This document shows, in pieces, positions 28,670 through 57,334 of a stretch of 64,000 nucleotides of DNA. Within the stretch, counting starts at the first letter, position 1. The number at the start of each line of letters is the position of its first letter. A program made the position numbers and the translations under genes. Source of the DNA: an uncultured Victivallis sp. (GTDB taxonomy: Bacteria > Verrucomicrobiota > Lentisphaeria > Victivallales > Victivallaceae); NCBI GenBank assembly GCA_944389895.1, contig CALXOA010000062.1, positions 7,073-71,072 of the forward strand. Direction: 5' to 3'. The notes beneath the pieces are model-generated. The model saw only the letters and a list, made by a program, of their open reading frames with translations, had not been told where the DNA came from and did no database searches.

Positions 28670-28734
28670 GATCATTTCCTTCTCTGATTCCAGACGACAG
28701 TTGAATGTCTGGGAATATAGTTCCACCGTTCCTC

Positions 28735-29586: not shown

Positions 29587-29711
29587 TTGCAGAACTCTCC
29601 GGTTTTCGGAATAGTATGGTCCCCCGGAGAGGATTTTGCAAGGATCTGAATGAAAACATGTGAAAATTATTTCTGAAACATTCTGAAATATTTCATCTTC
29701 TCGCTCCGTCA

Positions 29712-31508: not shown

Positions 31509-31592
31509 GATAAGGATCCTTTATTTTGGAATTTTACCTGTGGAAACTGATAGGAGATTGCCGGCTCCGGAGAGATTTCAACATTCCGGAAG

Positions 31593-34013: not shown

Positions 34014-34069
34014 TAGCTTGATATAAGATTCACATATGTTTGGCAGATCAATCAGGAGTGAAGTTGCAG

Positions 34070-37000
34070 ATGAGCGGAATCTGGTCGAGAGTGCGCATGG
34101 GGGCGTGCCTGGGAGTGCTCACTATGGCGCCGATGGTCGCCGTGACGGCGGCAGAGAAGGGAAAAACGGTTGAAGAGAGTCAGCAGGAGATTGCACCATG
34201 GTATCCGGCTCCGGAGCCGCTGCGGCCGATGAATACCGCAATTCCCGCCGCTGAAGTCAGGGCGGTTCTTGCCGACGGGATCACGGTGGAGCCGGGAAAA
34301 TTCAATTCGACGCGATTGTTGAACGGTACCTGGCGTTGTTCCGGTCTGGTCCGGTCGGCGGATCCCTTCGACAACGGAATCGATCTTGACAAGGGGTATT
34401 CTGCCGCGGATTTCGACGATGGCGCCTGGGATCAGATCGAGGTGCCGCGCAACTGGTACCTGAAGTATCCCTATCGGACGATTCACAATCCGCGTGAACC
34501 CTTCGTCAAAGGATGGTATCGCCGGACGTTTGACCTGACTGCCGATGAGCTTCGCGACCGGGCGGTCATATTACATTTCAACGCCCTCGGTTACGAAGGC
34601 AGGCTCTGGATCAACGGAGAGGAGGCGGGAAGCCATCACGGGGATTTCGTCCCGTGGACGGTTGACATCACCAGATTCGTGAAGCCGGGGCGGAATACCA
34701 TCGCACTGCGGGTGTTTTCGGATTTCGGCGTCTCACAGACCCGGGGCGGCCTGAAGGCGGTGCGTTCCTACGGGGCGCAGTGGAGCGTCGAAAGCATCAA
34801 GGGCGGTTTATGGCAGGACGTCGAACTGCGTTTTGAACCGCTGATCCGGTTCAGCCGGATTCTGGTGAATCCCGAGCTCGCCTCGGGCGGAATCTCGGTC
34901 GACTATACGGTGGAAAACAGTACCGGGCGGAAGGTTGAGGCTGAACTGGGCGGTGTGGTCACGACTGCGCTCAGGGAGGGGGCAAATCAATTCAATGCCG
35001 CGGCGACCGTGTCGCGTGAACTGCCCCCCGGAACAACTTCCGGAACACTTGAAATCAAACTCGACCGGCCGGTACTGTGGTCTCCGGAACAGCCCTATCT
35101 TTACTTCCTTTCAATGTTCGTCCGTGACGGTGACAAGATTCTCTCCGCAAAGGCGGAGCGTTTCGGCTATCGTGAGTTCAAAGTCCGGGACGGCCATTTT
35201 CAACTCAACGGGAAACGGATTTTTCTGTTCGGCGAGAATATTCCCGCGAATGGTTACGGCGGCGGGGACAGCGACGAAAAATACCGGCCGATCCTCCACG
35301 CCTGGCTCGCCAACGCGCGGGCTCGCGGAATCAATATCGTCCGGAACGCCCATATGCCGATTCTGCGCCAGGCGCTCGAAGTCGCCGATGAGATCGGTTT
35401 GATGTTCTACGACGAGTGGAGCTGGAGCTTCACCAACGCGATTGAGGAAAAAGAGTTCGAAAAGCGCAATCTCGCGGAGTTCTCCCGCTGGATCGAGCGT
35501 GATTACAACCATCCGTCTGTGGTGATGTGGTCGTGCGGCAATGAGGTGATCTATCGCGACAAGCCGGAGGTGCAGCGCCAGCTTGACAAGCAGGTGGAAC
35601 TGGCGCGGCGACTTGACCGGTCCGGCCGTCCCGCCGGCTCGTTTTCCGGCTGTGCGATGTGGGACATGTATGGTACCGGAAAGCTGGTTACCGATTTCAT
35701 AGACCTCCACTTCTATCTTGGTAACGGTGTCGCGCCGTGGACACACTGGAACCGGCGGTTCGATGAATATTATGCCGGTTCGCTTCAACATTACCAGGCA
35801 ACCGGTGCGAGACTGCCTTTCCCGTACATCATCTGGGAGTGCATCGGGTTCTCGTGGGGAGGCAAGACCGATCCCACCTTCCGAGCCAACGATCCGCGCG
35901 CCTACGCCAACTATGCGCGCAGCAAGACCGACTGGGCGCAGCCGAATGGAATCGGTTATTCCGGCACCATCGGACTTGCCCGGGCTCTTTCCCCGGATGG
36001 ATTGACTTACGCCAAGAATCATTATGGCCACCGATTGCTTGAACTGATGCGTCAGGATGTCCGGATCGATGGTTTCGCCCCGTGGTTCCATGGCGCGAAG
36101 CTGGCGGGAGCCGCGCTCTGGAATCAGCCGGTTCTGCCGGGGTTGCGCGGCGCGGCCGGTTTCCCCCCGTCGAATCTTTTCTCGAAGCGGCCGGTGAAGC
36201 TGGAACTCTTCGTCGTCAATTCAACTGATCGGGCGCTTGTTGACGCAACCGCCGAGGTGACTGTGATGACCGGGCCATGGACGGAGCGCCGGATCGGGCG
36301 TTATCCGCTGGGGGGGATCGGATCATGGGAGCGACCTGTCAGGGAAATTGAATTTGAGCTGCCTTCTTCGATCCGCGGTGTTGCCCAGTTCCGGATTACG
36401 CTGTCGGCAGAGGGAAAGACCGTCGGGCGTAATTTCTATGACATTTTTGTACAGGATCCGGCTGTTTTGAATACTCCCCTTGCCGGAGCATCCCCGGTGG
36501 CGCTGCTCGACGGGGGCGACGAAACCGACATCGAGACGACCGCGGCGATCCTGAAGGCGCTGGCGATTCCGTATGAAAAAGTCGGGGACGCCGAGGCGCT
36601 GGCGAAGTTCAGAAATGCGGTGGTCCCGGCCTCGCTGCACAATACCGGAGCATTGGAGTTCGATCGCGATGCGTTGTATGGCTGGGTACAGGCGGGGGGA
36701 AATCTGCTGATCCTCGAACAGACGCCCGGCAGCGGTTCAATCCTTCCCGATCTGAGCGTGACTGCCGATCCGAACACCTTTGTCGATCTGGTGATGCCGG
36801 CGCATCCGGTCTTTTCCGGCCTGACGCAGCGGAATTTCGATACCTGGGAAAACCCGGATCTGGGCAATGTGATCACCAATGTGATTTCTCCGTTCTCCGT
36901 CAATTCGCTTGCCGCGAAGGGGCCGGTGCTTGGCGGTCGCAAGGTTTCGACGGCGATTCTGGAGGCTGCAGTCGGGCAGGGGTATGTGTTCTGGAATCAG

Positions 37001-38251
37001 CTCGATGCAGTAAAACTCTGGGGGCGCGACAGCGCTGCGTCCACCTACCTTGGAAATCTGTTCCGGTATCTTTTCTGCGGAGGTGGGCGTCATGCCGGAG
37101 TTCTGCCGCTTGAGGCGAGCATGGCTGCCGGATTCCAGGTGGATCCGGAGCGGTTGTCGCCGATCGATCTGACCGCCCATGTCAACCGCAGTTTCACCGA
37201 TGAGACCGACGGCGACGGCAAGGGAGGGTGGACGGACCAGGGGATCAACGATTTCCGCAATATGCCGCTCGGCAGACAGCGTGCGGCGGGGGTGATGTTC
37301 GAAATCATCGATCCGGCGAAGAATAACGACAAGAGCTGCATCGTTCTGCGTGGATCGAACCGGACTTATTTTCCGGAGGCTGTCCGGGGAATCCGGGTCG
37401 GCGAGAAGTTGAGCCGGATCTTCTTTCTGCATACCTGCGCCTGGGTCGGCGGAGAAGCCGGCTGTTACCGGATGAATTATGCCGACGGTACCTTCTGCGA
37501 TCTTGTGCTGGTTGACGGCAAAAACATCGGTGACTGGTGGATGGTCACGTTTCTCTCCGATGCGCTGCCGGGAATCATGCGGCCGAATGCAACCCGTGAG
37601 GAGGTGGGCACCTATGTGACCTGCTGGGAGAATCCGCGGCCCGATCAGGAGATCGTTTCGATCGATTTTCTCGGTGCCGGAGTGGCCCGCAGGGGAGAGA
37701 TCGCCTATGTCGCCGCAGCCGCTCCGGTTCCGGTCCTGGTTGCCGCGACCGGTGAGCGTTACAATCCCGCTGCGATTGAGATCAGGCCGCCGTTCCGGGG
37801 AGAGTGTTCCGACGGGGAACAGCCGCCGAAGATCGAACTGGAAAAAACGACATTGCCCGACGGTTCCGGGGGCGAGGCGATCCGGGTGGAATTTCCCGCG
37901 GTCTCCGGGAAAGGTATGAGCTGGTTTTCCGCTTCATTCGATCCGTCGAAATACAGCAAGGAGGGATTTCGCTATCTGACGTTCTGGATCAAACCGGCCG
38001 GCCTCGGGGCGCTCGACATCTCCCTTCCGGGACGGGACCGTCAGGGGGCCATGAGCCGGAGCATTGAAATCGGTACGAAGGATCGTGACTGGACCAGGAT
38101 CCGGCTCAATCTCGGCTCGGATCTGAAGTGGAGCGGGAAGGCCGCCGATGCGCTTGCCGGAGAACTTCTCATCTGCAACGGGCAGGACAAGAAGGTGTTT
38201 TTCCCGCGGCCGGCCGTGAGTTTTCTGATCAGCGGCATTGTGCTGGAGTAG
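34070..38251 (+). CDS. Large secreted glycoside hydrolase family 2 protein with an extended C-terminal region
   Basis: Signal peptide, GH2 sugar-binding domain (W..I.VP.NW.., RAVILHFNALGYEGRLWINGEE), TIM-barrel motifs (NIVRNAHMP.., WSCGNEV) and about 800 extra C-terminal residues. ATG at 34070 follows AGGAG; the ORF-track start at 34040 is a TTG. Confidence 0.8.
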   Translation: MSGIWSRVRMGACLGVLTMAPMVAVTAAEKGKTVEESQQEIAPWYPAPEPLRPMNTAIPAAEVRAVLADGITVEPGKFNSTRLLNGTWRCSGLVRSADPFDNGIDLDKGYSAADFDDGAWDQIEVPRNWYLKYPYRTIHNPREPFVKGWYRRTFDLTADELRDRAVILHFNALGYEGRLWINGEEAGSHHGDFVPWTVDITRFVKPGRNTIALRVFSDFGVSQTRGGLKAVRSYGAQWSVESIKGGLWQDVELRFEPLIRFSRILVNPELASGGISVDYTVENSTGRKVEAELGGVVTTALREGANQFNAAATVSRELPPGTTSGTLEIKLDRPVLWSPEQPYLYFLSMFVRDGDKILSAKAERFGYREFKVRDGHFQLNGKRIFLFGENIPANGYGGGDSDEKYRPILHAWLANARARGINIVRNAHMPILRQALEVADEIGLMFYDEWSWSFTNAIEEKEFEKRNLAEFSRWIERDYNHPSVVMWSCGNEVIYRDKPEVQRQLDKQVELARRLDRSGRPAGSFSGCAMWDMYGTGKLVTDFIDLHFYLGNGVAPWTHWNRRFDEYYAGSLQHYQATGARLPFPYIIWECIGFSWGGKTDPTFRANDPRAYANYARSKTDWAQPNGIGYSGTIGLARALSPDGLTYAKNHYGHRLLELMRQDVRIDGFAPWFHGAKLAGAALWNQPVLPGLRGAAGFPPSNLFSKRPVKLELFVVNSTDRALVDATAEVTVMTGPWTERRIGRYPLGGIGSWERPVREIEFELPSSIRGVAQFRITLSAEGKTVGRNFYDIFVQDPAVLNTPLAGASPVALLDGGDETDIETTAAILKALAIPYEKVGDAEALAKFRNAVVPASLHNTGALEFDRDALYGWVQAGGNLLILEQTPGSGSILPDLSVTADPNTFVDLVMPAHPVFSGLTQRNFDTWENPDLGNVITNVISPFSVNSLAAKGPVLGGRKVSTAILEAAVGQGYVFWNQLDAVKLWGRDSAASTYLGNLFRYLFCGGGRHAGVLPLEASMAAGFQVDPERLSPIDLTAHVNRSFTDETDGDGKGGWTDQGINDFRNMPLGRQRAAGVMFEIIDPAKNNDKSCIVLRGSNRTYFPEAVRGIRVGEKLSRIFFLHTCAWVGGEAGCYRMNYADGTFCDLVLVDGKNIGDWWMVTFLSDALPGIMRPNATREEVGTYVTCWENPRPDQEIVSIDFLGAGVARRGEIAYVAAAAPVPVLVAATGERYNPAAIEIRPPFRGECSDGEQPPKIELEKTTLPDGSGGEAIRVEFPAVSGKGMSWFSASFDPSKYSKEGFRYLTFWIKPAGLGALDISLPGRDRQGAMSRSIEIGTKDRDWTRIRLNLGSDLKWSGKAADALAGELLICNGQDKKVFFPRPAVSFLISGIVLE

Positions 38252-40683: not shown

Positions 40684-40846
40684 CGGGGGTATCCGGGGTG
40701 GGGGAATGATCATCGGAAGTCCGGGAAGGTTCCCACGCGGAAAGGCGTGACGGAGAATGCGGAAGGCGGAAATTCACCCTGTCGCACGGGGCGGAACTTT
40801 CTGCGGAAAGTTTCACGAGATTTGAATAAAATGTTATCTGGATGAC

Positions 40847-40875
40847 TTGCAAAAACTGTTTTTCCCCGGTATACT
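40847..40875 (+). promoter_or_regulatory. Sigma70-type promoter for the 1590-aa GH2-like gene
   Basis: TTGCAA (40847-40852), 17-nt spacer, TATACT (40870-40875). This places the ORF-track start at 40842 upstream of the transcript and supports the ATG at 40914. Confidence 0.5.
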
Positions 40876-40913
40876 ATTGTCCGACTACCCGGGCGAACAA
40901 CTTAAAATCGAGG

Positions 40914-43900
40914 ATGACGACTATGAAAATTGCCGTATTTCTTCTGTCCTTCACTTTATTGACGATGGTGTTTCCCGGAGTTGCCGCCTCGGAAAATCTG
41001 CTCCGAAACAGTGACTTTCAATTGTCGGATTCAAAGGGGGCGGGAGAGGTCCCCGATTGGCATCGTTCCGGCGGTGTTTCCATTCGGCAGCACGGCGGAA
41101 AACTGGAATTGACCACATCGGCACAGGCGCCTGACATGCGGGTCGAGCAGTTCCTTCCCGTCGCCGACAACTGGGGAACGCTCCGGTTCAGCGGAACAAT
41201 TGAAATCGACCGGATCACACCGATCGGACGTGTCGATTTCAGCGTTTATCCGACGGTGATGTTCTTCAGTGCCGACAAAAAGATTCTCGGTACGCTCCAA
41301 CTGGATGCCTCTCCAGGCAAAAGTGCCGGGATCCACGAGTTTTCGCGGGTGTTCGGGTTGCCCGCCGGCACCGTGCAGATCGCAGTCCAGTTCCGGGTCC
41401 GCTCTGCAGAAGCGGTTGCGAAAGTCGTTGCGCCGGTTCTCGAGGTGCTCGGCGCCCCCGGGGAAGCGGTTGACGCTCCGCCGCCTGCCGGACGCACGGT
41501 GGACTGGGGGCGTGAGCCGGTGATTGTACGCGGTAGTGACAGGGGCGAGATCGTGCTCAACGGGCTTTGGCGGTTTCAGATTCTCGATCCGGCGATCAAC
41601 CGCGACAAACCCGTTTCGAAGGGGTGGGGGCTGATCAACGTTCCCGGTACCTGGAATGCCCGGTCTCAGGTGCCGAACCTTGCCGCGCACGGCGGTGGGC
41701 CTCTTTGGCAGGGGAGGAACATCGACAATGCTTCCGCCGCCTGGTTCAGTCGGCCGTTGGAGATTCCCGCAGATTGGAAAGGGCGGAAAATCGAACTGGA
41801 GCTGGAACGGGTCGGTACCGTTGCCGAGGTGTGGGTTGACGGAGTCAACTGTGGGGAAGTCCGGCATCCCGGTGGTGTGGTGGATCTCACGCGGGCTGCC
41901 CGTCCCGGAGAGAAATCCGAATTGACCATCAAGGTGCTCGCCGTTTCAGACGTCAAGGAGATTCTTGAGATTGAGGGCGCCAATGCGGATCAGTTCTACA
42001 AGAAGAAGGTTACGCTGGAAGGGAAGGGGCTGACCGGCGATGTGGTGCTCCACAGCCGTCCCGCCGGCGGCGGTTATGCAGGTGTGTTCATTCAGCCGTC
42101 GGTTCGCCGCAGGATGCTGAAGCTGGTGGTCGAGTTTGCCGGACTCGACAAGCCGGGCGAATGGAAGATTGCCGCCCGGGCGCTCAAAAGTTCGGGGAAT
42201 CGGAGTTTTCCCGAGCATACCGTGCAGCTCTCCCCGGATGCAGCGGGGGAGGCGGTCGTCACTCTCGAATATCCGTGGCCCGATCCGGAACTCTGGGACA
42301 TCGACCAGCCCAACCTCTACGATCTTGAACTGACGGTGAGCGGCAACGGGCGGACCGAGACGATTCTGGAGCGTTTCGGATTTCGAGAGTTTCACATTGC
42401 GGGGCGCGATTTCTTTTTGAATGACCGCAAGTTCAATCTCCGCCCGATGGTGCTCTCCGGCTGGTCCAGCCCGACCTTCACGATCGAGGGAATGCAGGGG
42501 GCGATTGCGGGGTGGAAAAAGGCCGGCTTCAACCTCCACGAGGTCTGGCCGCAGGAGGATTTCCCCGGTAAGGTCGTCTATCCGGAACGTGCGGCGCTCG
42601 ATTACGCAGCTGAAATCGGCTGGCCGGTGATCGCCGATCTGCCGTCGATGCGTGATCTGCGGCTGAGTTTCCTCTCCGACAAGCAGGCTGCTGCCGCATG
42701 GAAAAAACGGGTCGAGGCTAAATTGCGCAGGTATCGCAACAATCCGGCGATTCTGATGTGGGTCCACTCCGCGAACTCCTTCAACGGCGTCAGCGACCAG
42801 GATCCGCGTTACATCGGTCAGCCGGAAAAGTTTTTTGCCGAGGGGAACGGCGTCACCAACGCGCTTCCCGCCGGACTTGCGGTGTCGGAGATCCTCCGGG
42901 AACTCGATCCTACCCGGCCGAATTTCTCTCACGCCGGGCAGGTCGGTGACGTCTACACCGCGAACAATTATCTGAGTATGATTCCTCTCCAGGAGCAGGA
43001 GGAGTGGCTCTCAGACTATGTCCGGTTCGGTACACACCCCTATCTTGCAGTGGAATTTGGTTTCATCGCCGGTTTCGATTTCCGGCGCGGCCGCTCCGCC
43101 TACCAGTACACCAACAGTACCGAGAAGCAGATGACGGAACACCTCGCCGCCTTCTATGGTCGTGAGGCCTATGAAAAGGAGTCCTTCGCTGCTGCGGCCG
43201 ACAACCGCAACACCCTGATCCGGGATCAGCTCTATCGCAGCACCGATGCGTTTGTTCCCGATGAACTGGCGCTTGATCTCTTCGCCAGGATGAACCGCCA
43301 GGTGTTCCGCAGCTGGCGTACTGCCGGCTGTTCCGGTGGAATGATCCCGTGGATGATCAAGGATGGTTACGATCTCGGGCGTCTCGATCAATCACTGAAG
43401 CTGAAAACCATGGCGACCGTCAAGAGTCCGCCTTTCCAGCCCGGTCGTCGCGGATTCTACAACCCCTATCTGTCGCTTGAGGCGCGCTATTGCATCGGTC
43501 TCGAGGCGGCGACGCCCAATGTCGCCGGCAAGGCGCTCTCCGAGGTCAACTCGGCGACTCTCGCCTGGCTCGGAGGCGCGGAGATCCCGGGCGATGTGGT
43601 TGATTTCACCGAGAAGAGCCACAGCTTCTACGGTGGAGAGAACGTCCGGAAACAGGTGGTGATCCACAACGACCTGCGCCGGAGCGCCCCCTACCGGTAT
43701 GAGCTTGAGCTGCTTCTCGGGGGCAAAGTTCTGGACTCCCGTAAAGGCTCCGGAACAATTGACGCGGCGGGGAAACTGCTGATTCCGGTGGAGTTCAAAC
43801 TGCCCGAAGTCACGGAGAAAACCGATGCCGAACTCCGGCTTGTCGCGGAGGTCGGCGGCAATTCCCACGGCGATCGGTTCCGTCTGCGCGTTTTCCCGGC

Positions 43901-45683
43901 GAGGCCGCAGCCGTCGGCGGGAGAAATTGCACTCTGGGATCCGAAGGGCGATACTGCGAAATTCCTGAAATCCGCCGGATACCGGGTGAAGATGGTGGAG
44001 TCTCCCGCCGCGGATACGAAGTTTCTGGTGGTCGGGCGCGACAATCTGATCCGGGGAGGAAAGCGCCCCTTCGATCTCGAAAAATATGTTTCCGGCGGCG
44101 GCACTCTGCTGGTGATGGCGCACAAGAGCTATGGGGACGGCTTCCGTTACGGCAACTTTGTGCAACGCCAGGTGTTCCCGGTGGACGACGCGTCGCCGGT
44201 TACCGCAGGGCTGGATCGCGAGGATCTGCGTGACTGGCGGGGATCCGGTACACTGCTGGAACCCTACCCGAAGGTGCCCGCCGGCAAAACCGGCTGGGGA
44301 TGGCACTGGGGGAACCGCGGTTCCGTGGTCAGCCGCAACATCGAAAAGCCGCACCATGGCGGCTGGACTCCATTGCTGGAAAGTGACTTTGATCTTCAAT
44401 ACACCCCGCTGATGGAACTTGCCCGCGGTCGGGGCGGAGTGATCGTCTGCCAGCTGGATTTCGAGGACAATCTTGCCGATCCCGCGGCAATGCGGCTTTT
44501 CGACAATCTCATCGTCTATGCGGAAGCGAAACGGTTTTCTCCGCGCAGCCGCAGTACCGTCTATCTCGGTGACGATTCCGGCCGGGAGCTGCTGACCTCC
44601 TTCGGTCTGCGATTTGAAAGTTCCGACGCGATTCCCGCCACGGCCGATCTGGTGCTGGTCGGTCCCGGTGCGAAAGCGACCCGGGCTGAACTGGAGGCCG
44701 CGGTCGGACGCGGTGCGAAGGTCGCGGTGCTCGGTGCAGAGCCTGCCCGGCGGATTCTCGGTCTGGAGCTGGAGAAAAGAAAGGATTACCGTGGTTCGTT
44801 GAGGCCCCCGGCGTGGCCGGTGGCGGCCGGGCTTTCTGCGAGCGATCTGCGTTGGCGTTCTCCGCTGGATGCCGAACTTCTGCAATCAGCATCCGGTCTG
44901 GAGGCGGGAGCCGACGGGCAGCTCGGTCGTCTGGCTGTGCCGGGAGGAGAGATCATCGTCTCGCTGCTCGATCCGAACCGGTTCGACACGGTCAAATTTC
45001 CGTACTGGCGTTTCACCCGCTGGCGGCAGACCCGGGCGTTGAATCAGCTGCTGGCAAACCTGGGTGCGGAGTTTTCCGTCGATGGAGAGTTTTTCGCCAA
45101 TACTCCCGGTGCGACGGGGTGGCTTGATTTTGCCGAAAACTGGCGCGGCAGATTTCTCGTGAAAATGGGAAAGGCTTCGGCTCCGCTGAAGGATCCGGGG
45201 ATTTCCGCTGAGGCACGAAAGGCGGTCCAGCCTGATTTCGACGATTCGAAGTGGCAGCTGATCGACATGCCCTTCTGCTGGCATCGGGAGGCGTTGAACG
45301 ATCCGGAGTGGGGAGAGCAGAACGGCGAAGCGGTTTTCCGCCGTGAAATCACAATTCCCGCGGAACTTGCCGGAAAGAGTCTGAAGCTCGATCTCGGTCT
45401 GATCGATGATACGGACAAGACCTATTTCAACGGCGAATTGATCGGGGGCGCCGACAACTACCAGGTGTTCCGCAGTTATACGATTCCGGGACGACTGGTG
45501 AAGGCCGGCCGCAACGTGATTGCGATCAGGCTATTTGACAACTTTGGAGAAGGTGGCTTCTTCAGCAATGCGAAGGTCTTCCGGATGCCGCTCAAGGAAC
45601 AGGTCATCGGCCTTTACCATTCCGATTATCTCGATGCCGATTTCAGGAGTGCCGATCATCCGCATCGTTACCATCGCTGGTGA
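40914..45683 (+). CDS. Very large secreted multidomain glycoside hydrolase family 2-like protein
   Basis: Signal peptide (MKIAVFLLSFTLLTMVFPGVAAS), N-terminal CBM-like jelly roll, GH2 sugar-binding domain (..AAWFSRPLEIPADWKGRKIELELERVGTVAEVWVDGVNCG), TIM-barrel-like region and a C-terminal galactose-binding-like domain (DDSKWQLIDMPFCW...KTYFNGELIG). Confidence 0.7.
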   Translation: MTTMKIAVFLLSFTLLTMVFPGVAASENLLRNSDFQLSDSKGAGEVPDWHRSGGVSIRQHGGKLELTTSAQAPDMRVEQFLPVADNWGTLRFSGTIEIDRITPIGRVDFSVYPTVMFFSADKKILGTLQLDASPGKSAGIHEFSRVFGLPAGTVQIAVQFRVRSAEAVAKVVAPVLEVLGAPGEAVDAPPPAGRTVDWGREPVIVRGSDRGEIVLNGLWRFQILDPAINRDKPVSKGWGLINVPGTWNARSQVPNLAAHGGGPLWQGRNIDNASAAWFSRPLEIPADWKGRKIELELERVGTVAEVWVDGVNCGEVRHPGGVVDLTRAARPGEKSELTIKVLAVSDVKEILEIEGANADQFYKKKVTLEGKGLTGDVVLHSRPAGGGYAGVFIQPSVRRRMLKLVVEFAGLDKPGEWKIAARALKSSGNRSFPEHTVQLSPDAAGEAVVTLEYPWPDPELWDIDQPNLYDLELTVSGNGRTETILERFGFREFHIAGRDFFLNDRKFNLRPMVLSGWSSPTFTIEGMQGAIAGWKKAGFNLHEVWPQEDFPGKVVYPERAALDYAAEIGWPVIADLPSMRDLRLSFLSDKQAAAAWKKRVEAKLRRYRNNPAILMWVHSANSFNGVSDQDPRYIGQPEKFFAEGNGVTNALPAGLAVSEILRELDPTRPNFSHAGQVGDVYTANNYLSMIPLQEQEEWLSDYVRFGTHPYLAVEFGFIAGFDFRRGRSAYQYTNSTEKQMTEHLAAFYGREAYEKESFAAAADNRNTLIRDQLYRSTDAFVPDELALDLFARMNRQVFRSWRTAGCSGGMIPWMIKDGYDLGRLDQSLKLKTMATVKSPPFQPGRRGFYNPYLSLEARYCIGLEAATPNVAGKALSEVNSATLAWLGGAEIPGDVVDFTEKSHSFYGGENVRKQVVIHNDLRRSAPYRYELELLLGGKVLDSRKGSGTIDAAGKLLIPVEFKLPEVTEKTDAELRLVAEVGGNSHGDRFRLRVFPARPQPSAGEIALWDPKGDTAKFLKSAGYRVKMVESPAADTKFLVVGRDNLIRGGKRPFDLEKYVSGGGTLLVMAHKSYGDGFRYGNFVQRQVFPVDDASPVTAGLDREDLRDWRGSGTLLEPYPKVPAGKTGWGWHWGNRGSVVSRNIEKPHHGGWTPLLESDFDLQYTPLMELARGRGGVIVCQLDFEDNLADPAAMRLFDNLIVYAEAKRFSPRSRSTVYLGDDSGRELLTSFGLRFESSDAIPATADLVLVGPGAKATRAELEAAVGRGAKVAVLGAEPARRILGLELEKRKDYRGSLRPPAWPVAAGLSASDLRWRSPLDAELLQSASGLEAGADGQLGRLAVPGGEIIVSLLDPNRFDTVKFPYWRFTRWRQTRALNQLLANLGAEFSVDGEFFANTPGATGWLDFAENWRGRFLVKMGKASAPLKDPGISAEARKAVQPDFDDSKWQLIDMPFCWHREALNDPEWGEQNGEAVFRREITIPAELAGKSLKLDLGLIDDTDKTYFNGELIGGADNYQVFRSYTIPGRLVKAGRNVIAIRLFDNFGEGGFFSNAKVFRMPLKEQVIGLYHSDYLDADFRSADHPHRYHRW

Positions 45684-48330: not shown

Positions 48331-49287
48331 CTACTTCCGGGGAGGTGGTGCGACACTCTTTCGCTCGCAATAAAGGTAAGGAATCATCTGATTGGTGATT
48401 TTTTCCCTTTTCTTGAGCAGCAACAGACGGATCAACGACAATGCATTTGCGGCCAGAGCCGGATAGTTCTGGCAGAAGGTTGTGAGAGGCGGTTCGACCG
48501 CATGGGATAGTTGCAGGTTTTCCCAGGTAATCAGGGAAATATCCTGTGGAACCCGGATTCCGACTTCCGCCAGAGCCTTCAGGACTTTGAGAGACATCTC
48601 TTCATGCGGCAGCAACAGGGCTGTGACTTTATCCGAAACGAGCTGTTCCAGCTGTGGGCGGAATCCTCTGATCGGGTCATGTTCATATACTTTCCCCTCA
48701 CAAAGTTGATGTTTCCCTATCGCTTCGATGAAATACCTTTGTCGCAATTTCTGAGAATATCCGCCTTCCCCGATATCCAGCAGACCGATTTTGCCGTGGC
48801 CGGCCTGGATGAAAACATTTACCGCCCGTTCGATGGCGTCTCCCTCATCGGAGTTGATGGACCAGATATCGTTACCGGAACGGTGGCGGTTGTTGATTAC
48901 GACAATGGGGCAACTGTAAAATTCCGCCAGTTTCCGGTTGACCAGATCACTGTAACAAAGTGAGATGATTCCATCGAAAACCACTGCCGCCCCGCAGCGC
49001 AAATTGGATTCGGTCAACATCAGCAGTCCCCACTCTTCTTTTGCGCAGAGCTGTATTAATTCAGATACCAGGGACTGGTCATAAGAGCCGAGACAGAATC
49101 GGTCATGAACCACGAGGAGAAGTTGTTTCCGCAGGGTATCCGGGCGGTATTTCTGTTTACGTGCCTCGGCAAGAACTCGTTCTCGCGTTTCCGGCGAGAC
49201 TGATGAACAGCCGGCTAACGCACGTGACACTGTCGCGGGGGAGAGGCCCAACGTTGCCGCAAGTGTCCTGATTGAAACCTTTTTCAC
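48331..49287 (-). CDS. LacI family transcriptional regulator
   Basis: N-terminal HTH MKKVSIRTLAATLGLSPATVSRALAG plus a PBP1 sugar-binding domain. GTG start at 49287 is preceded by AGAGGA. Confidence 0.85.
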   Translation of the reverse strand: MKKVSIRTLAATLGLSPATVSRALAGCSSVSPETRERVLAEARKQKYRPDTLRKQLLLVVHDRFCLGSYDQSLVSELIQLCAKEEWGLLMLTESNLRCGAAVVFDGIISLCYSDLVNRKLAEFYSCPIVVINNRHRSGNDIWSINSDEGDAIERAVNVFIQAGHGKIGLLDIGEGGYSQKLRQRYFIEAIGKHQLCEGKVYEHDPIRGFRPQLEQLVSDKVTALLLPHEEMSLKVLKALAEVGIRVPQDISLITWENLQLSHAVEPPLTTFCQNYPALAANALSLIRLLLLKKREKITNQMIPYLYCERKSVAPPPRK

Positions 49288-49310
49288 CGGTGATTCCTCT
49301 TTCAGGTTAT

Positions 49311-49348
49311 CTGTATTGCAAATATACAGTTTTTTTTGGTAAAAACAA
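49311..49348 (-). promoter_or_regulatory. Putative LacI-gene promoter overlapped by an inverted repeat
   Basis: Minus strand: TTGTTT (49348-49343), 16-nt spacer, TATATT (49326-49321). The inverted repeat CTGTAT-N7-ATACAG (49311-49329) overlaps the -10 element and start site. Confidence 0.35.
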
Positions 49349-49392
49349 GATATCTCCGCTCAGTTTTGTTCCATTATGTTTCATGGAAACGG

Positions 49393-49421
49393 TTGGAAAT
49401 CCCGCCTGCTTTGGGTATAAT
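49393..49421 (+). promoter_or_regulatory. Near-consensus sigma70 promoter preceding a 400-nt leader of the H-X9-DG gene P2
   Basis: TTGGAA (49393-49398), 17-nt spacer, TATAAT (49416-49421). Confidence 0.55.
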
Positions 49422-49829
49422 TAGGTACGATGGCCGAAGTATTCGAAACAATGAAAGTCCTGGAGCCGGTGAAAAAAAGGACATGGGAGACATCGGTTTC
49501 CGGTTGGAGTCAACCATGGGGCCTGCAGGGACGGAGTGCGGCAATGAGCGACAGGGTGGTTTGCCGGAAGAAACTTGCCGGAGAACATCGGTGTACTCGC
49601 TGCGGATTGCAATCGTTTATTCGAACCTTACGGGGGGCTCCTTGAAAGCGGAACTTGCAGGCAGTTTCAAAAACGGGTGAGGGATGGTGGGACAGGGGAG
49701 GACACATTTCCCGATCTGCTCAGACCTGGAGGAGCCACCTGCGGACAGAAAGACAGAATCAGGCGAACCAGTTTTATTTCCGGAAAATTGCGATAAGAAT
49801 CGGTTTTCTCAAAATGAAGGAGAGTCATC

Positions 49830-50618
49830 ATGCAGAGCAGAGAGTCACACAACCGCCCCATTGGCCAGTCGCAGATGAACAATCGGGGAAAGCATTTTAC
49901 ATTGATTGAATTGCTCATAGTGATTGCGATCATCGCAATTCTGGCCGGAATGCTGTTGCCGGTTCTCAACAAAGCACGCGAGAAGGCACGTTCCGCCAAC
50001 TGCATCAGCAATCTCAGGCAATTGCAGGCCGGCACCATGCTTTACGCAAATGACAACGATCAATGGATTGTTGCGTATTGCGGAAATACAATGGCTGCAT
50101 TGTTGTATATCGGGAATTATGCTCCGTTCAAGAGTTACTATTGTCCGTCGTTGAGGACTCCCGCCGGGCAGTGGGTCGCGTCAGACGTGGTGGCAGTTCC
50201 GGATCAGGATCAGCGTCTCACGTTCGGTTACGGGAATGTGCGTTATGATATTCCCTGGCAGTTGACCTATTACGATGAACGAAAGGAGAGGTGGGGAACA
50301 TTTTACAATGTTTCCGGTTCCTGGGCGGGTTACAAGGTTGACCGGATGAAAGCGCCTTCGGAGATCTTCTACTGGGCTGATACGCTCAACAATCCTGTAA
50401 CCACCGGACAGGGATTGCCGCAGTTCGGCTGGGGACAGTGGACTCCTGCCGGGGACGTGGGTGTTTCGCTTGATGCATACCACATGTCGTTGAATCACGG
50501 GGAGCGCGGAACGGTCTCATTCATCGACGGACACGTAACGCAGTTAGACCGAAATTCCGGGAAAAAGGCGGGAATTGAAGCGATGACCATTCAAGGTGTT
50601 TTTGCCGTGAACATCTGA
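49830..50618 (+). CDS. Prepilin-type N-terminal domain protein with H-X9-DG motif (DUF1559-like), copy P2
   Basis: ..[47 protein letters not shown] and C-terminal [19 protein letters not shown] lies 7 nt upstream of the ATG at 49830. Confidence 0.85.
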
Positions 50619-50669
50619 CCATTGCAATGGTCCCGATCATTGACATTCATGGCGTGGGAGTTCTGGAAT

Positions 50670-51872
50670 ATGGAAGAACGTAAATGGCTTTTCAGTTTTG
50701 CCGCAGCCGTATCTGTGGTATTCCTTATCTGTGCAGGGGAGGTGGAGAGTGCGGGTGTCTTCGGCTGGTCGCGCCACTGGAATCGTCCTGAACGGTTCGA
50801 TGCTGTTTCCGGTGGCCGATTCAAACAGCCCGGCCGGGGAAAAGTGACTTTTGACGAGGAGGAGAAAGCGCTCCGCTTCGAGTTTGATTTTGAAGGAGAC
50901 GGCGATTTCTGGGCTTATCCGCGGATCTTTCTGGGAGAGAGTGAAGATCTGAGCAACGCGGATTACATCACCTTTGAAATGCGGGTAGATGATTCGAGTG
51001 AGGCCGCCGGAATCGAGTGCGCCCATGTCATGCTCGGGTTCGATAACAAATTCTACCAGATTGCCGTCCCCGGCAGAGAGTACCGTCATTATGTGGTGGA
51101 TCTCAATAATGGTTGCAGGAACAAAAAGGAGGTTCGCAATATTGCGATCGGAATGAATCCACGGTCAAGAAAGCTCATTTACTGGGTGAAGGACATCCGG
51201 GTTCTCGGCAAAAACGTTCCCGATTCGGAACTGGATGTTTCAGAAGTGGTCTCGGTCGGAGTGCCCGGAACGGTCTTCACGCGAAGTGATAAGCTGGAGT
51301 TCCTCCTGGATTATCTTCCGGCCGGAACGAGGATTGATTGGAAACTTCTCGACTGGCGGGGAAAAGAGTTGGATTCCGGGCAGTGGCCGGATTTCGGGAG
51401 AAAACCCCTGCTGCTTGAACCTCTGCCCGACGGATATTACAGGCTTTCGCTCTTGTCCGATTCGGTAAAATTCACTGGGGAAAAGAGTTTTCTGGTTGTT
51501 CCGGATCCCGTTGACCGCCCCGACAACCCTGATGCTTTTTTCTGCTGGGACACCGCACAGAGTGAACTTGGCAGAGAAAATCCTGAAAACACGCGCCACC
51601 CCTGGAACGGATGGGCCGAAGCAAGTGAGATTTCGCGCCGGTGCGGAGTCCGAATCATCCGGGATCGTTTCTGCTGGCCCGTCTGTGAAGAGAAACCCGG
51701 GAGGTATAACTTTGACGGCTACAAGGAGAATGTCGAGGCGTTGAACAGCCGCGGGATCAAAATAAGTAATCTTTTCTACGGTTGTCCGGAATGGGCCAGA
51801 GAGAAAAACGGGATTCTTCCCTCTGATCTGCTCTCTCTATCGTTTTGCGGAAGCGGCGGGAAAGTTCTATGA
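50670..51872 (+). pseudogene. Clan GH-A TIM-barrel glycoside hydrolase, N-terminal fragment (frameshifted)
   Basis: Signal peptide (MEERKWLFSFAAAVSVVFLICAGEVESA), a CBM-like domain and the start of the catalytic barrel. The frame ends at TGA 51870-51872, while homology continues in the +1 frame. Confidence 0.65.
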
Positions 51873-52026
51873 TGGAAAGGTTGATGTATGGGAATTCTGG
51901 AATGAAGAGGACATCTGGTTCGCTTCGGAATCGGCGTGGGATTTTGCATCTGCACAAAAGGCGGCGTATCTCGGCTTCAAAGCAGGATCTCCCGATACTC
52001 CGGTAGCACAGGGCGCCATCTCCAAT

Positions 52027-53652
52027 ATGGAGGAACCGTCTTCTTACGTTCACGTGATGTTTTCCAATGGGGTCAGGGATTATCTGGATATCTTCAACGT
52101 CCACAGCTACGCGGCGATTTGTGAGCTTCCCCGGCTGGGGGCTACCATTGAACAGTTCGCGCGGCAGCATGGCATCGATGAACGCCCGCTCTGGATTACG
52201 GAGAACGGAACCAGGGCGGAGGGCGCGGGGCGGGAAACAAGTTATATGACGCGTTTCCGCAAACACTCTTATGAGCAGGAACTTCTGGTTGCAGAAGCTT
52301 TGCCGAAAGGGATGATTACGATGCAGGCGGCCGGCGTTGATCGCAACTTCTTCTTCGTGCTTCTCCCCTACAATGAACAGAATGGTCATAAGGACTGGGG
52401 ACTTCTGAGGCGTGATCTCAGCGCGAAACCGGCAGTCGCGGCACAGTCGAATCTTCTCTACCTCCTCGCGGATGCCGAATTGATGGGGGAGATGAAACTT
52501 GGCGATGGACTCAAGGGGTTTCTCTATCGGAAACTGGATGGAAGTCAGACGCTTGTTTTCTGGAGCCAATCACCTCTTGACACGCGCCAATGGAACAGCG
52601 GGCTTGAGTTTGACGATCTGCTGGAACGGAACTTCACACTTGATTTTGCCGGTGATCCCAGAGGATACAATCTTTTCGGTACCCCGGTGGCGTTGAACAT
52701 GGAAAAGGGGCAACTGAAACTTCAGGCGATCAGAATGCCGCAATTCATCTCCGGATTGAAAGGATTAAAGGCTGATATCCCCTTTGCAAAACGGAACCGG
52801 AGGTTTTCCCCGTCCCGGGTCGACTATGATCGTACCATCGTCTATCAGGTGAAAACCGGCCGTAACTTCAAATCTTTGACCTATGCCAAGGATTACGTCG
52901 AATTGAAGGAGAAAGCAGGAGAACTGCAACTGATTGTCTGGAACCTCTCTTTAGAGAAGAAATCCGGAGTTGTCTCTTTTTCGGGGCTTGCAGTCGGGAA
53001 TGCGCCGGAGATTCTCTCCGTCAATCCATTTGAGAAGACAACGGTTCCGCTTGAGGTTTCCTTCCCGGATGATTCCGCGCAGACTGTCTTTGAGGTGAAA
53101 GGTGTTTTCAATGGTCTGGAAACCAGTTGCCTGCGTATGCCTGTCGTTTCGGAGGAAGAGGTCGCCCGGAGGATTGCGCAGGGGCGTAAGGAAAAGTTGA
53201 TGTTTACGGAGGATCCCGGCAGCTGGCGTAAAAACGCATCCGGGGAGATGCAGATCAGCTGGGATGAAAATGAAAATGCGGTCAAATTCGTCACAGATTT
53301 CTCGCACGTGGCAGATAAACAGTTCTGGGCATATCCCGAATACGTTCTGCAACTTCCGCAAGAATCCATGCGGGGGGCTCTCGGCATCATTTTTGAATGG
53401 AAGGCGACTCCCGCCGCGGATGTAAATCTTGCTTTGTTGATGGCGGTTTACAGTACGGAGTCGGAACATGGCAAAAGTTTCTGGCTCGATGTCGCCCTCC
53501 CACAGGAAACCTGGGAGAGCCGAACGGTGATTTTCAAGAATCAGAATGTTGATCCGGAAAAGATCCGGCAGATTCGCATCGGAATGAATCCCACCCGGGG
53601 AGGAGTTCTAAGTTACTGGATCCGCAATATCCGGGTTATTTATCCCCGATGA
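52027..53652 (+). pseudogene. Clan GH-A TIM-barrel glycoside hydrolase, C-terminal fragment (frameshifted)
   Basis: Same frame is open from 51766 and encodes ..YRFAEAAGKFYDGKVDVWEFWNEED.. before the first ATG at 52027. It contains the PLWITENG nucleophile-type motif and a second CBM-like domain. Confidence 0.65.
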
Positions 53653-53878
53653 GATTCCACTTCTCTCCGCCGGTGGAGATTGTTCTGGAATACTTTCCGG
53701 AGGTGATCTGAAGTATTCTCTCTCTCATGGATGGGTGAGCAACCAACCGGGAAGAGGCCCCACGTCTTTCCCGAAGTGAATCCCCACAAACCGGATGGGG
53801 TCGCCGCCGCGAATGTATTTCCCCGCGTGACATCCCTCCTTCCGGAGGTCCATCCGGGTGTCCTTGAGGGGGAAAAGT

Positions 53879-55432
53879 TTATTCCGCCTTCAGAAGCGAT
53901 TTCGAAAACCTCTGATTCTCCTTCATATACTTGAGCAGGATTCTGCGGCGCGGGGTGTCCCCCGCTCTTTCGGTTTTCCCGTTCACTTCGATAACCTCGG
54001 CATCCCAGCCGTGATACTCCCGAAACGAGTGATAGGTCCAGCTCCAGCCGTACTCCTCGAAAATGGAGATCGCATCATCCAGATACTGTTCCACGCCGGG
54101 AGCCCAGTAGGGGGCGCTGAACTCTCCGACATAGATCGGGACATGGTACTTCTTGTGGAAGTCTATGACCGGTTTCATGCTTTGGATCATCTGCTCGCGA
54201 TTCCAGAAAACCCCGTCGATCACGCCCGGGTATTTCAGGTTTCCCGGCCTGCCGTGGATCCCCTGATGGGTGTAACTGTGCGGCTGGTAGTAGTGGAAAC
54301 TGTAGATCACGTTGTTTACGCTGACCGGGCGGAGCGTTTCAAAGCCGGCCGGATGTCCCCATTTTGCGCACTCCACAATGATCGGTGTGACGGGATCCAC
54401 CTCGCGGATGGCACGGGCGATCTTATCCGCCAGACCATTCCAGTCCAGCCTGCCGTCATCCTTGTAGACGTAATCATCCTCGCGGGGTTCGTTCAACAGA
54501 TCATATCCCAGGATCATCGGTTCATCCCTGTAGCGTGCGGCGATTTCCCGCCAGACGTCGGCCAGGAGCTGCTGCATCTCCGGATCCCAGCTCAAATCGT
54601 TACTGGAGAGTTCGCTGACTCGAGTTCCGGGGCCGACATGCATGTCAATTACAATTCCGATTCCATATTTGCGCGCATACGGCAGAATGCGATCCAGCAC
54701 TTCCAGCCGGTTTTTCACGATGGTCCGAAATCCTTTTTCGGTACGGTGGTCGTTGATCTTGTCCTTGTCGATCCAGAATCGGATCAGATTGGCGTTCCAG
54801 ACCTCGCTCAGTTCCCGGAATGCTTCCTCCCGGATGTCGTGGCCGATCATGACCCCGCGGAAGCGGCTCTTCTCCGGCGGTGGCAGCTGAATTGCCGGAT
54901 TGAACTTGACATCCTGCTTCGCCGGAGCGGCGATCAGGCCTATGTCATCGAAGAAAATGGTTCCTTCCGATTGTTGCAGTCCGATCAGAATGGATAATTC
55001 CGAAACATTCTCCGGAACGTTGCAGAATGCGGAAAATTCCCGCCAGTCATAGCTGCCGTACGTTTTGGAATGGCTTGCGTAGTCCACACCGTTCGGAGTA
55101 ACCACCTTCAGCGCGAAAGCCGGGCCGAGATAGCTCAACGCCGGTTTCCGGATGTTCTCCCCCCGGATTTTTCCGGTGAGAGTGATTCCTCTTCCGCGCA
55201 GCTTTTCCACCGGAATGCGGATCTCGCTCATGGCACGATTGTCGACTTTCGAATAGGTGAATTTCGCGCAGCCGGAATGGTTTGCTCCTTCGGTGGCGGA
55301 ATAGCTCATTCCGGCGATCTCCGGCCACCTGGAAAATTCGGACTGTGAATTGAAATCACAGAAAAAGATCTCCTCCGCCGGAATCCCCGGCGTCAAGAAA
55401 ACAAGCGCGATGAAAATGGCTCTCTTCAGCAT
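53879..55432 (-). CDS. Secreted glycoside hydrolase family 5 (cellulase-family) enzyme with an N-terminal CBM-like domain
   Basis: Signal peptide MLKRAIFIALVFLTPGIPA, GH5 motifs ..NANLIRFW.., IVIDMH, GYDLLNEP (acid/base) and VGEFS (nucleophile). ATG at 55432 is preceded by GAGGAG. Confidence 0.8.
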   Translation of the reverse strand: MLKRAIFIALVFLTPGIPAEEIFFCDFNSQSEFSRWPEIAGMSYSATEGANHSGCAKFTYSKVDNRAMSEIRIPVEKLRGRGITLTGKIRGENIRKPALSYLGPAFALKVVTPNGVDYASHSKTYGSYDWREFSAFCNVPENVSELSILIGLQQSEGTIFFDDIGLIAAPAKQDVKFNPAIQLPPPEKSRFRGVMIGHDIREEAFRELSEVWNANLIRFWIDKDKINDHRTEKGFRTIVKNRLEVLDRILPYARKYGIGIVIDMHVGPGTRVSELSSNDLSWDPEMQQLLADVWREIAARYRDEPMILGYDLLNEPREDDYVYKDDGRLDWNGLADKIARAIREVDPVTPIIVECAKWGHPAGFETLRPVSVNNVIYSFHYYQPHSYTHQGIHGRPGNLKYPGVIDGVFWNREQMIQSMKPVIDFHKKYHVPIYVGEFSAPYWAPGVEQYLDDAISIFEEYGWSWTYHSFREYHGWDAEVIEVNGKTERAGDTPRRRILLKYMKENQRFSKSLLKAE

Positions 55433-55518
55433 GATCTCTCCTCTGTAAATCGATGGCCCGGCAGGGGGCGGTGCTCCTGCCTCATCCCGACGATTGTTCG
55501 TGCCGATGAATGGAAACA

Positions 55519-56226
55519 TCAGTCATCCATCGGGCTGTACATGCGCTGGTTCTGAAAATTCAACAGCTCCCGCCAGTGGATGGAATCCGCGTGTCCGTCG
55601 AAGAATGCATTGTTGACATGGGCGGAATGGCGGTAGGCTACTCCGTATGTGCCGTTTTCTCCGGCGGCCAGGCTGGCCAGCGCCTCCGCTTCCGTGAAGC
55701 TGCCGTTGAGATTGGCGCTCAATGCATCGGCAAAAGCCGCCTTGGCGGAAGGCTTTCGGATCCGGCTGAGCTTGAATGCATATGCGATCCATTCCCCGGC
55801 ACTGTCGTCGTGGAGTCCACGGTAGCTGGCTCCGTAAGAGGTTCTCGGGTCGCCGTAGGCGCCGAGAGTTGCGCTGGCGGTGGTCAGCACCGCCTTGGAA
55901 ACCGGACACAATACTTTTTTCTGGAAAAATTCCGTTGCGTAGAGCGGTCCTGCCGAGGTGACGGCTTTGGACGGTGTCCCGATCAGCGCCCGGAAGGTAT
56001 CGTTCAGCCAGTAGGCGTCATTTCCCGCCGGCGGTACCCAGTACTCCTGTTGTTCCGAGGCGTACATGGTTCCGGCGAGTCCCCATTGTTTGAGCTGATT
56101 GGTACAGGTCGTTTTCCTAGCCGCGTCCCGGGCTTTGTTCAGCGCGGGAAGCAACATTGAGGCGAGTACGGCGATGATTGCAATAACGACCAGTAATTCT
56201 ATCAATGTGAATCTATCCGTATTCAT
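55519..56226 (-). CDS. Prepilin-type N-terminal domain protein with H-X9-DG motif (DUF1559-like), copy P3
   Basis: [47 protein letters not shown] and C-terminal [13 protein letters not shown]. The ATG at 56226 lies 19 nt after the regulator stop. Confidence 0.85.
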
Positions 56227-56245
56227 GATTCTCCTGCTCCTTTCA

Positions 56246-57268
56246 TCATGTGTAATGCAGACTGATTCCGATTGCGGTGTGATAGTCAGGTTCGTTCCCC
56301 TTTCCCTGCAGCTCCCGTTCAAGGCGTTCCGCCATGAACTCAGCCGCTTCGGTCATTTTCCGGCGTACCACCAGCCCGTGGAAATCCATGTTGGCGAAAA
56401 GGGTCATCTCCCCGGCGACGGGAAGTGTTTCTCCCATTTGCCGGATCAAGGTCATGAAGGGGTGTATTTCGCCGCAGAAGATCACCGCGTCCGGCCTGTC
56501 TGCGGAATCCAGTATCTCTTTCAGCGCGGAATAGTTCAGCAGTTCATTTTCCATCAGGTATCTCACTTTCACGCTGCTCTTCCGCACGGATTCAATTCCG
56601 GAATGCAGTTCGGAAAACATCTCCCCGTAGGGATTGCCGACAACCGCGATGTTGCTCCTGCCCTCCTTCTGCAGGAAATCGAAGATTTCCGCATATTCTT
56701 CGCGGAATGCCCAGTGTGCGCAGTAAGGATGGCTTCCCTGGGCTCCGAAGGCAATCACCGGCAGTCCGCCGCGGCGCAGGCGCAGTGCGGTTTCCAGATG
56801 TGAATCCAGCGGTTTCACCCAGATGACGCCGTCAACTCCGGATTTGACGATCTGATCGTAAAGTTCATCGGATTCTCCGCCGCAGTTCAGCAAAGTTTCG
56901 ATCCGGTAGCCGGGGTCCCTGTGCAATATCGCGCGGGTGATGGAGTAGTGAAGCAGATTGCTGGCGTTGTCCTGGTAGATCTGCCGCCCGTCCCGGAAAA
57001 TCAGGCCGATCACCTTGAAGTGGTTCACTGCCAGCATCGGACTCGGAACGGTCACGAATCCCCGGTTCCCGGTCGCAGTCAGGTAACCGTCACGTACCAG
57101 CCCCTTCAGCGCCCGTTGAACTGTGGGGTGGGTTACCCCCAGCATTTTCCCGAGTTTCCGCGCGGAATCGATTTTCATCGCCTGATTTCCGGAGCGGGCG
57201 ATCAGTTTGATGATATGCTGCTGGACCTTCAGATACTCGGGAACGTAATATTTCTTTTCCAAAGTCAT
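56246..57268 (-). CDS. GntR-family regulator of the AraR type (GntR wHTH plus PBP1-like sugar-binding domain)
   Basis: ..[40 protein letters not shown] (GntR HTH) followed by a LacI/PBP1-like domain. Confidence 0.75.
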
Positions 57269-57305
57269 ACTGTCTTTACCAGTGATTTACCATTTTTTAT
57301 GGGAT

Positions 57306-57334
57306 ATTATAGCAAAAAAAACCTGACATGTCAA
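57306..57334 (-). promoter_or_regulatory. Consensus sigma70 promoter for the regulator-P3-GH5 operon, with a palindrome over the -35 element
   Basis: Minus strand: TTGACA (57334-57329), 17-nt spacer, TATAAT (57311-57306). The 10-bp palindrome TGACATGTCA (57324-57333) overlaps the -35 hexamer. Confidence 0.6.

Follow-up and report, generated by a model that had tools for sequence, protein, structure and literature searches.

We analysed a 64,000-nucleotide (nt) stretch of DNA from an uncultured Victivallis sp. (GenBank assembly GCA_944389895.1, contig CALXOA010000062.1, positions 7,073 to 71,072 of the forward strand; referred to here as the window), in which a transcriptional regulator (R), a small pilin-like protein carrying a C-terminal H-X9-DG motif (P) and a glycan-active enzyme (G) lie side by side three times. 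The three sets of genes are numbered as copies 1 to 3. Copies 2 and 3 converge on each other and are the main subject of this work, and copy 1 serves for comparison.

Modules 2 and 3 of the window

The features of the two convergent modules, in window coordinates, are the following.

48331..49287, minus strand: R2, LacI-family regulator with a helix-turn-helix (HTH) and a periplasmic-binding-protein-like (PBP) effector domain (Pfam, NCBIfam)
49288..49829, plus strand: R2-P2 intergenic region of 542 nt, with a promoter-like TTGGAA-17-TATAAT at 49393-49421
49830..50618, plus strand: P2, pilin-like H-X9-DG protein (motif scan, TIGR02532, AlphaFold2 model)
50670..53652, plus strand: G2, secreted clan GH-A enzyme of ~1000 amino acids (aa) (signal peptide, profile matches)
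53653..53878: spacer between the converging modules; weak palindrome at 53664-53679
53879..55432, minus strand: G3, secreted endoglucanase-type enzyme of glycoside hydrolase (GH) family 5 with an N-terminal non-catalytic domain (Pfam, PDB)
55519..56226, minus strand: P3, pilin-like H-X9-DG protein of 235 aa, starting 19 nt past R3
56246..57268, minus strand: R3, regulator combining a GntR-type winged helix with a divergent, AraR-like effector domain (Pfam, hhalign)
57306..57334, minus strand: consensus sigma-70 promoter TTGACA-17-TATAAT for R3-P3-G3 (12/12 positions, extended -10 TG)

An earlier note on this DNA, made from the letters alone, had described most of this arrangement, and its layout is borne out: R2 on the minus strand is divergent from P2 on the plus strand across a 542-nt spacer, P3 starts 19 nt after R3, the promoter of copy 3 matches the consensus at every position and carries the TG extension in addition, and the two modules converge with their stop codons 226 nt apart. 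R2 is matched by the Pfam families LacI (3.5e-8) and Peripla_BP_3 (5.5e-19) and by LacI-type NCBIfam models as well. For R3, which the same note had called AraR-type, the assignment holds in part. The match to Pfam GntR falls just short of its cutoff (26.6 against 27 bits), no Pfam family matches the effector domain, and the AraR-like character is suggested by remote comparison: hhalign of the R3 group with bona fide GntR plus Peripla_BP_3 regulators gave a probability of 98.4% over 186 columns, extending beyond the HTH.

The ATG of P2 at 49830 has an AAGGAG Shine-Dalgarno site 6 nt ahead of it, and an alternative start at 49875 would leave the short leader MNNRGKH in front of FTLIE. The spacer between R2 and P2 is unusually long and its sole promoter-like site lies ~400 nt upstream of P2; the region may be a long leader of about that length or the home of an unrecognised regulatory element. 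No Rfam family was found across the whole window at the gathering threshold, the long P2 leader included, and the window holds no tRNA genes. An inverted-repeat search of the regulator-P intergenic regions gave AT-rich, low-quality palindromes only, and in view of this lack of a convincing operator palindrome we propose no operator.

The enzyme of copy 3 is the clearer of the two. G3 starts 86 nt past P3 with its own GAGGAG Shine-Dalgarno site and the signal peptide MLKRAIFIALVFLTPGIPA, and its identification as a secreted GH5 enzyme, already made in the earlier note, is confirmed by the Pfam Cellulase family (PF00150, 1.5e-29, 103.8 bits) and by the PDB endoglucanases 8ag9 (1e-84) and CelC (2e-29).

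For G2 the expected signal peptide and the clan GH-A character were both recovered, but the gene is frameshifted here. In the window it consists of two open reading frames (ORFs) in different frames, 50622-51872 and 52027-53652, with candidate starts at 50622, 50649 and 50670, and the sequence WEFWNEED, a GH-A signature with the NE acid/base motif, is encoded in the second frame between the two ORFs. In three assemblies of the same species (L001-L003), which are 99.6-99.7% identical over 16 kb, G2 is a single ORF of 994-1001 aa, and alignment to them traces the split to the loss of 2 bp from a CTCTCTC run, at window position 51837/51838. A programmed frameshift was considered and rejected since these near-identical strains have an uninterrupted ORF; the lesion reflects an error of assembly or else marks a pseudogene particular to this strain.

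Intact G2 matches no Pfam family above cutoff. We place it in clan GH-A because a profile built from three sequences matches 5jvk (1.8e-11), PslG (8e-7), GH1 (1e-3) and GH42 (1e-3). The protein has a central clan GH-A barrel of the PslG/GH39-like kind flanked at each end by a similar domain of ~130 aa. These terminal domains are ~31% identical, share the motif FWAYP...IGMNP...YW.R.IRV and lie at residues ~57-186 and ~861-998 of the L001 protein, corresponding to 50622-51200 and 53230-53650 in the window. No Pfam family matches them, and they may be carbohydrate-binding modules. The G2 family has just 92 members, found in Lentisphaeria, Kiritimatiellae, Verrucomicrobiota and Planctomycetes, and every one of them is labelled hypothetical.

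A six-frame motif scan of the 64 kb found exactly three FTLIE-type genes, P1, P2 and P3, the first of which belongs to copy 1.

29712-31508, minus strand: G1, beta-helix enzyme, RHGA/pectate-lyase-like (rhamnogalacturonase-like)
31593-32252, minus strand: P1, pilin-like protein between R1 and G1 (motif scan)
32659-33759, minus strand: R1, GntR plus Peripla_BP_3 regulator (Pfam)

The copy-1 operon (27431-32252) runs past G1 into a lyase of the dihydrodipicolinate synthase family (28735-29745) and a BNR/sialidase-like protein (27431-28726), which suggests a pathway for an acidic or sialic-acid-like sugar. Two giant GH2-type secreted proteins, at 34040-38251 (1403 aa) and 40842-45683 (1613 aa), have no pilin-like gene ahead of them, and the first of these is divergent from R1.

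A single family of pilin-like proteins with divergent heads

All three P proteins have FTLIELL near the N-terminus and end in H-X9-DGH, and the earlier note had taken these two regions to be all that they share. Alignment by region agrees on the shared parts, with 67-71% identity over the N-terminus (F1 to Q42) and 38-46% over the H-X9-DGH segment. The core between them is only 17-19% identical, and the claim that the central cores are unrelated did not survive profile comparison. Alignments of the P3 and P2 subfamilies matched each other over their full length with 100% probability (hhalign, E 2e-65), and with 61-63 residues trimmed from the N-terminus and the C-terminal motif taken off as well, the cores alone still matched with 97.1% probability (E 5e-11), aligning the common landmarks CP, YG and K.PS..AD. 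By these profile alignments P1, P2 and P3 are one homologous family, head domain included. The note had gone on to read the variable core as a sign of tailoring to each locus's substrate or cargo. A conserved N-terminus followed by a variable head is, however, the generic pattern of pilins, and variable heads alone are therefore no sign of tailoring.

Membership in known families, for which the note had proposed searches with hidden Markov models (HMMs), was recovered unevenly. The prepilin model TIGR02532 accepts all three proteins (21.5-21.9 bits against a cutoff of 16.3, with P2 at 21.5) and PF07596 accepts P3 alone (28.9 bits against 23.3, covering profile positions 2-32 of 268), but PF07963 stays slightly below its cutoff of 21.2 for P1-P3 (19.5-21.0 bits) and TIGR04294 found no match on P1-P3 or their C-termini even at E<=10. 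Many close homologues bear precomputed PF07596 matches or the Joint Genome Institute name "H-X9-DG protein". The names Victivallis vadensis and Victivallaceae carried by homologues put the organism in the Lentisphaerota. We take the P proteins to be divergent members of the H-X9-DG/DUF1559 pilin-like superfamily.

All 145 aligned relatives keep F1 and E5. The P3 subfamily alignment has F1, E5, C41, C107, D210 and G211 as invariant residues, and in each of the two subfamily alignments the H, D and G of the H-X9-DG motif show no variation or a conservation of at least 90%. At the N-terminus, matches in NCBIfam and the PDB include GspG, ComGC and PilA. Sequence searches of the PDB gave matches confined to the pilin N-terminal helix, and the GspG model TIGR01710 likewise covers only the N-terminal 57 residues, scoring 29-31 bits against a cutoff of 88.85.

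AlphaFold2 models of P3 and P2, with mean predicted local distance difference test (pLDDT) values of 91 and 85, each show a 50-residue N-terminal helix followed by a small alpha/beta head. We considered a carbohydrate-binding module, a solute-binding protein and a known pseudopilin fold for the head, and none could be assigned (best Foldseek E 0.56). Given that no solute-binding fold was matched, the Pfam name SBP_bac_10 is no evidence of such a fold here. Tryptophan and tyrosine together make up 8.8% of the P heads, compared with 3.3% of the housekeeping proteins of the window. A search with the P2 head alone among 1.84 billion representatives returned 16 proteins at E<=1e-3, the best three of which belong to P2's own subgroup, and two of these were shown to precede a G2 homologue.

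Gene order and co-inheritance in relatives

We sampled the surroundings of P homologues at 15 Lentisphaeria loci, 14 of which have a readable downstream gene and one of which ends at a contig edge. The genes directly downstream of P were distributed as follows.

10/14: recognisable glycan-active enzyme (GH5, GH2, G2 family, heparinase II/III-like lyase, GH127 or beta-helix)
1/14: flavin adenine dinucleotide (FAD) oxidoreductase, then a beta-helix protein
2/14: large uncharacterised or hydrolase-like protein
1/14: housekeeping gene

A secreted enzyme-type gene therefore follows P directly at 13 of the 14 loci. The enzymes bear Sec signal peptides, and in most loci a single large Sec-exported enzyme starts 0-125 nt after P. 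A LacI, GntR or GntR plus PBP regulator stands adjacent at 11 of the 15 loci. At one locus (L004, 1-12720) three regulator/pilin-like/enzyme modules stand back to back within 12.7 kb; the first comprises a heparinase II/III-like enzyme and a major facilitator superfamily (MFS) transporter, the second a GH2 enzyme, and the third is cut by the end of the locus. By these data the order regulator, pilin-like protein, glycanase is genuine and recurs in Victivallaceae and Lentisphaeria.

Where pairs could be compared, P and the enzyme behind it show identities in the same range.

P2 and P0122, 61% identical: downstream G2 homologues 40-50% identical
P2 and P0124, 40% identical: downstream G2 homologues 43% identical
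P3 and P0003, 49% identical: downstream GH5 enzymes 52% identical over 502 aa
P0006 and P0020, 42% identical: downstream GH2 enzymes 40% identical

The proposal that each pilin-like variant travels with its glycanase in orthologous loci thus largely holds at moderate evolutionary distance. Close relatives do not routinely lack the pilin-like gene at orthologous glycanase loci, though to call P tailored to each enzyme goes too far. The regulator is not conserved together with the pair, being a divergent LacI protein next to P2 in the window, a co-directional GntR plus PBP protein in L008 and absent from the short contigs of L009 and L011. A FAD-dependent oxidoreductase (PF12831) was observed next to P genes twice, upstream of P0003 (L012, 492-1817) and downstream of the P gene of L119 (12788-14131), and its recurrence hints at an oxidative step in these glycan pathways.

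Role of the pilin-like proteins

The reading that we favour, with a probability of roughly 0.4, is that these modules are sugar-regulated polysaccharide-utilisation operons in which P is an extracytoplasmic accessory dedicated to the locus, capturing or presenting its glycan or holding its enzymes at the cell surface. P, the product of the first structural gene, consists of a short basic leader, the invariant F1...E5 hydrophobic helix and a small head that is rich in Trp and Tyr and ends in H-X9-DGH. It would be induced together with the neighbouring enzymes and insert into the inner membrane via the pilin-type helix. One type II secretion or type IV pilus-like machine in the cell would handle it, and it would act outside the cytoplasm on a per-substrate basis, most likely capturing or presenting the target glycan or tethering enzymes at the surface, a role filled at other polysaccharide loci by SusD or a solute-binding protein. 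A role per locus is favoured over one per enzyme because a single P gene can head several unrelated enzymes, as in L119 where it precedes a GH127-GH28-G2 operon, and because the heads do not follow enzyme family. The Trp/Tyr-rich composition of the heads and the position of the P gene right after the regulator also speak for an accessory of this kind.

Several observations weigh against this reading. The window GH2 at 34040-38251 has no P gene although it shares 46% identity with a P-linked GH2 of L004, and the nearby P1 is not the matching paralogue. P0008 (244 aa; L005/L006, 6001-6735), which is 41% identical to P3 and present on more than 300 contigs, has accD, rph (RNase PH) and dnaX as neighbours instead of enzymes, a setting that raises the possibility of a constitutive "core" subunit of the presumed machine. 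In Kiritimatiellia and Verrucomicrobiota no P gene lies close to the GH5 and G2 homologues. A genome scan with G3 returned distant GH5 homologues only, none accompanied by a P gene and none above 34% identity across most of the protein, which makes it a weak test of orthologous loci. The link between P and the enzyme is thus not obligatory. The window holds no genes for secretion or pilus machinery, and Foldseek searches of the PDB with both AlphaFold2 models gave nothing significant, the best match being the FimA pilin at E 0.56.

The residue ahead of F1 also belongs among these points. A glycine at position -1, in rare cases replaced by Ala or Ser, is the classical requirement of prepilin peptidase. 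P1 and P2 have H at this position and P3 has R (codons 32238-32240, 49893-49895 and 56212-56214, respectively). Of 235 Victivallaceae-type relatives, 4 have G, 9 have A and 23 have S, and the others have N, K, R, H, Y and further residues. In a contrast set of 44 proteins, by comparison, 24 have G and 14 have A; this set came from a metagenome scan with the P3 alignment and is a broad sample of the superfamily in the PVC (Planctomycetes-Verrucomicrobia) group, heterogeneous, with longer proteins and with downstream ORFs that are mostly small or absent. The scarcity of glycine at -1 makes canonical prepilin-peptidase cleavage, and hence fibre assembly, uncertain. Going by these residues, either the prepilin peptidase of this lineage would be unusual or the P proteins would stay uncleaved. 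F1 and a membrane-embedded E5 are expected for N-methylation and fibre assembly in type IV pilins, and their invariance here argues that pilin-type handling has been retained.

The main rival is a cargo-specific pseudopilin whose head binds its own enzyme in the periplasm and recruits it one-to-one to the type II secretion pseudopilus. The position of P immediately upstream of one large Sec-exported enzyme in most loci would fit such a partner, as would the parallel divergence of P and enzyme, the near confinement of the P2 head to the neighbourhood of G2 homologues and the similarity of the N-terminus to GspG. A one-to-one pairing is nevertheless hard to reconcile with L119, whose P gene precedes three unrelated enzymes and whose head gives no significant head-only match to that of P2 even though the G2 enzymes are 37% identical. 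The heads of the GH2-linked P0006 and P0020 are 31.5% identical, which does not exceed their identity to GH5-linked heads (33-34%), and the P-less GH2 of the window tells against obligate pairing as well. We consider this explanation doubtful.

If P were instead left uncleaved, it could stay in the periplasm anchored to the inner membrane, for example as an oligosaccharide binder that feeds transporters or as a factor for folding or holding the enzymes. This would account for the N, K, R, S, H or Y at -1 in ~90% of the 235 relatives as against G or A in 38 of the 44 contrast proteins. The MFS transporter after one L004 module would fit too, and planctomycete homologues fractionate with membranes (PMC8567305). 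An invariant F1 and especially a membrane-embedded E5 are hard to square with a mere anchor, however, and most modules have no transporter. We regard this as rather unlikely. Distinctly unlikely, in our estimate, is the absence of any specific link, with proliferating generic pseudopilin paralogues that happen to ride at the 5' end of inducible operons, a pairing due to shared descent of adjacent genes, and heads that drift under weak constraint. The extreme divergence of the heads beside a near-invariant N-terminus would be expected from such drift; the heads are unclustered by enzyme family at depth, and both enzymes without P and a P without enzymes exist. Against it stand the promoter-proximal place of P before secreted enzymes in 13 of 14 loci, with differing enzyme families and regulators, and the conserved landmarks and fold of the head with its confident AlphaFold2 models, which point to purifying selection on a folded domain. 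Pure hitch-hiking of the P genes is therefore unlikely.

A per-locus glycan accessory of this type can be set beside several known systems. With the H-X9-DG/DUF1559 proteins (PF07596, TIGR04294) the P proteins share the pilin-type N-terminus, the C.N.LKQ motif, a small head and the C-terminal H-X9-DG(H), but they are short (214-240 aa when mature), poorly captured by existing HMMs, without Gly or Ala at -1, and encoded as the first structural gene of LacI- or GntR-controlled operons of carbohydrate-active enzymes (CAZymes). With the type II pseudopilins (GspG major, GspH-K minor) they share the class III signal-type N-terminus with F1 and E5, and the setting is similar in that a diderm host needs to move folded glycanases across the outer membrane. 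The type II secretion system is the known outer-membrane route for folded glycanases, as in the Out, Xps and Pul systems. The P genes lie outside any gsp operon, however, with regulators and CAZymes as neighbours, and their heads have no detectable similarity to GspG-K structures. We know of no described type II system with dispersed pseudopilin copies beside cargo genes.

The SusC/SusD loci of Bacteroidota, and the Gram-positive loci combining a regulator, the solute-binding protein of an ATP-binding cassette transporter and glycoside hydrolases, resemble the window modules in that a regulator, a non-catalytic extracytoplasmic protein and secreted glycoside hydrolases are inherited together. 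The window modules differ in having no SusC/SusD and usually no transporter, and in that their non-catalytic protein is pilin-like, with glycan binding putative. By description the P proteins can also be likened to the cellulose-binding type IV pilin-like proteins of fibre-degrading gut anaerobes, CbpC/GP25 of Ruminococcus albus and those of Fibrobacter, which have been implicated in adhesion to polysaccharide. Those are the single or few pilins of a type IV pilus system, whereas the P genes are paralogues embedded in operons and number in the hundreds.

In these phyla the H-X9-DG/DUF1559 "SBP_bac_10" proteins have undergone massive expansion, and their function is unknown (PMC10632474, PMC2754498). 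One study ranks them as the biggest paralogue group of a planctomycete genome, again of unknown function (PMC10632474), with 68-91 copies per planctomycete genome (PMC10632474, PMC8567305); Tuwongella has 91, of which 25 were detected in the proteome, and the genes often adjoin those of signal-peptide proteins (PMC8567305). In the open-access literature we found no description of a regulator/P/CAZyme module in Lentisphaerae or of its non-Gly cleavage site. The parts are ordinary, and their functional context in CAZyme operons of gut Lentisphaeria is apparently undescribed. We suggest, with low confidence, that many hypervariable heads on a universal pilin stalk, each induced with its own enzymes by a sugar-sensing repressor and fed to one shared type II secretion or type IV pilus-type machine via non-Gly cleavage, are the substrate-specific element of an undescribed type of polysaccharide-utilisation locus. 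If so, the non-canonical -1 site implies a prepilin peptidase of altered specificity.

The GH5 module with its consensus promoter and the pair of strains with intact and frameshifted G2 provide experimental handles, and the question raised for biochemistry is how, or whether, a prepilin without Gly at -1 is processed. TonB-dependent SusC-like uptake has been reported lacking in a related lineage (PMC5148204), and the P modules could account for the way in which the bacteria studied here organise polysaccharide degradation. A paralogous family that ranks among the most expanded of Planctomycetes, Lentisphaerae and Verrucomicrobia, so far an orphan, gains from these modules a testable context in glycan capture or in the presentation and secretion of enzymes.

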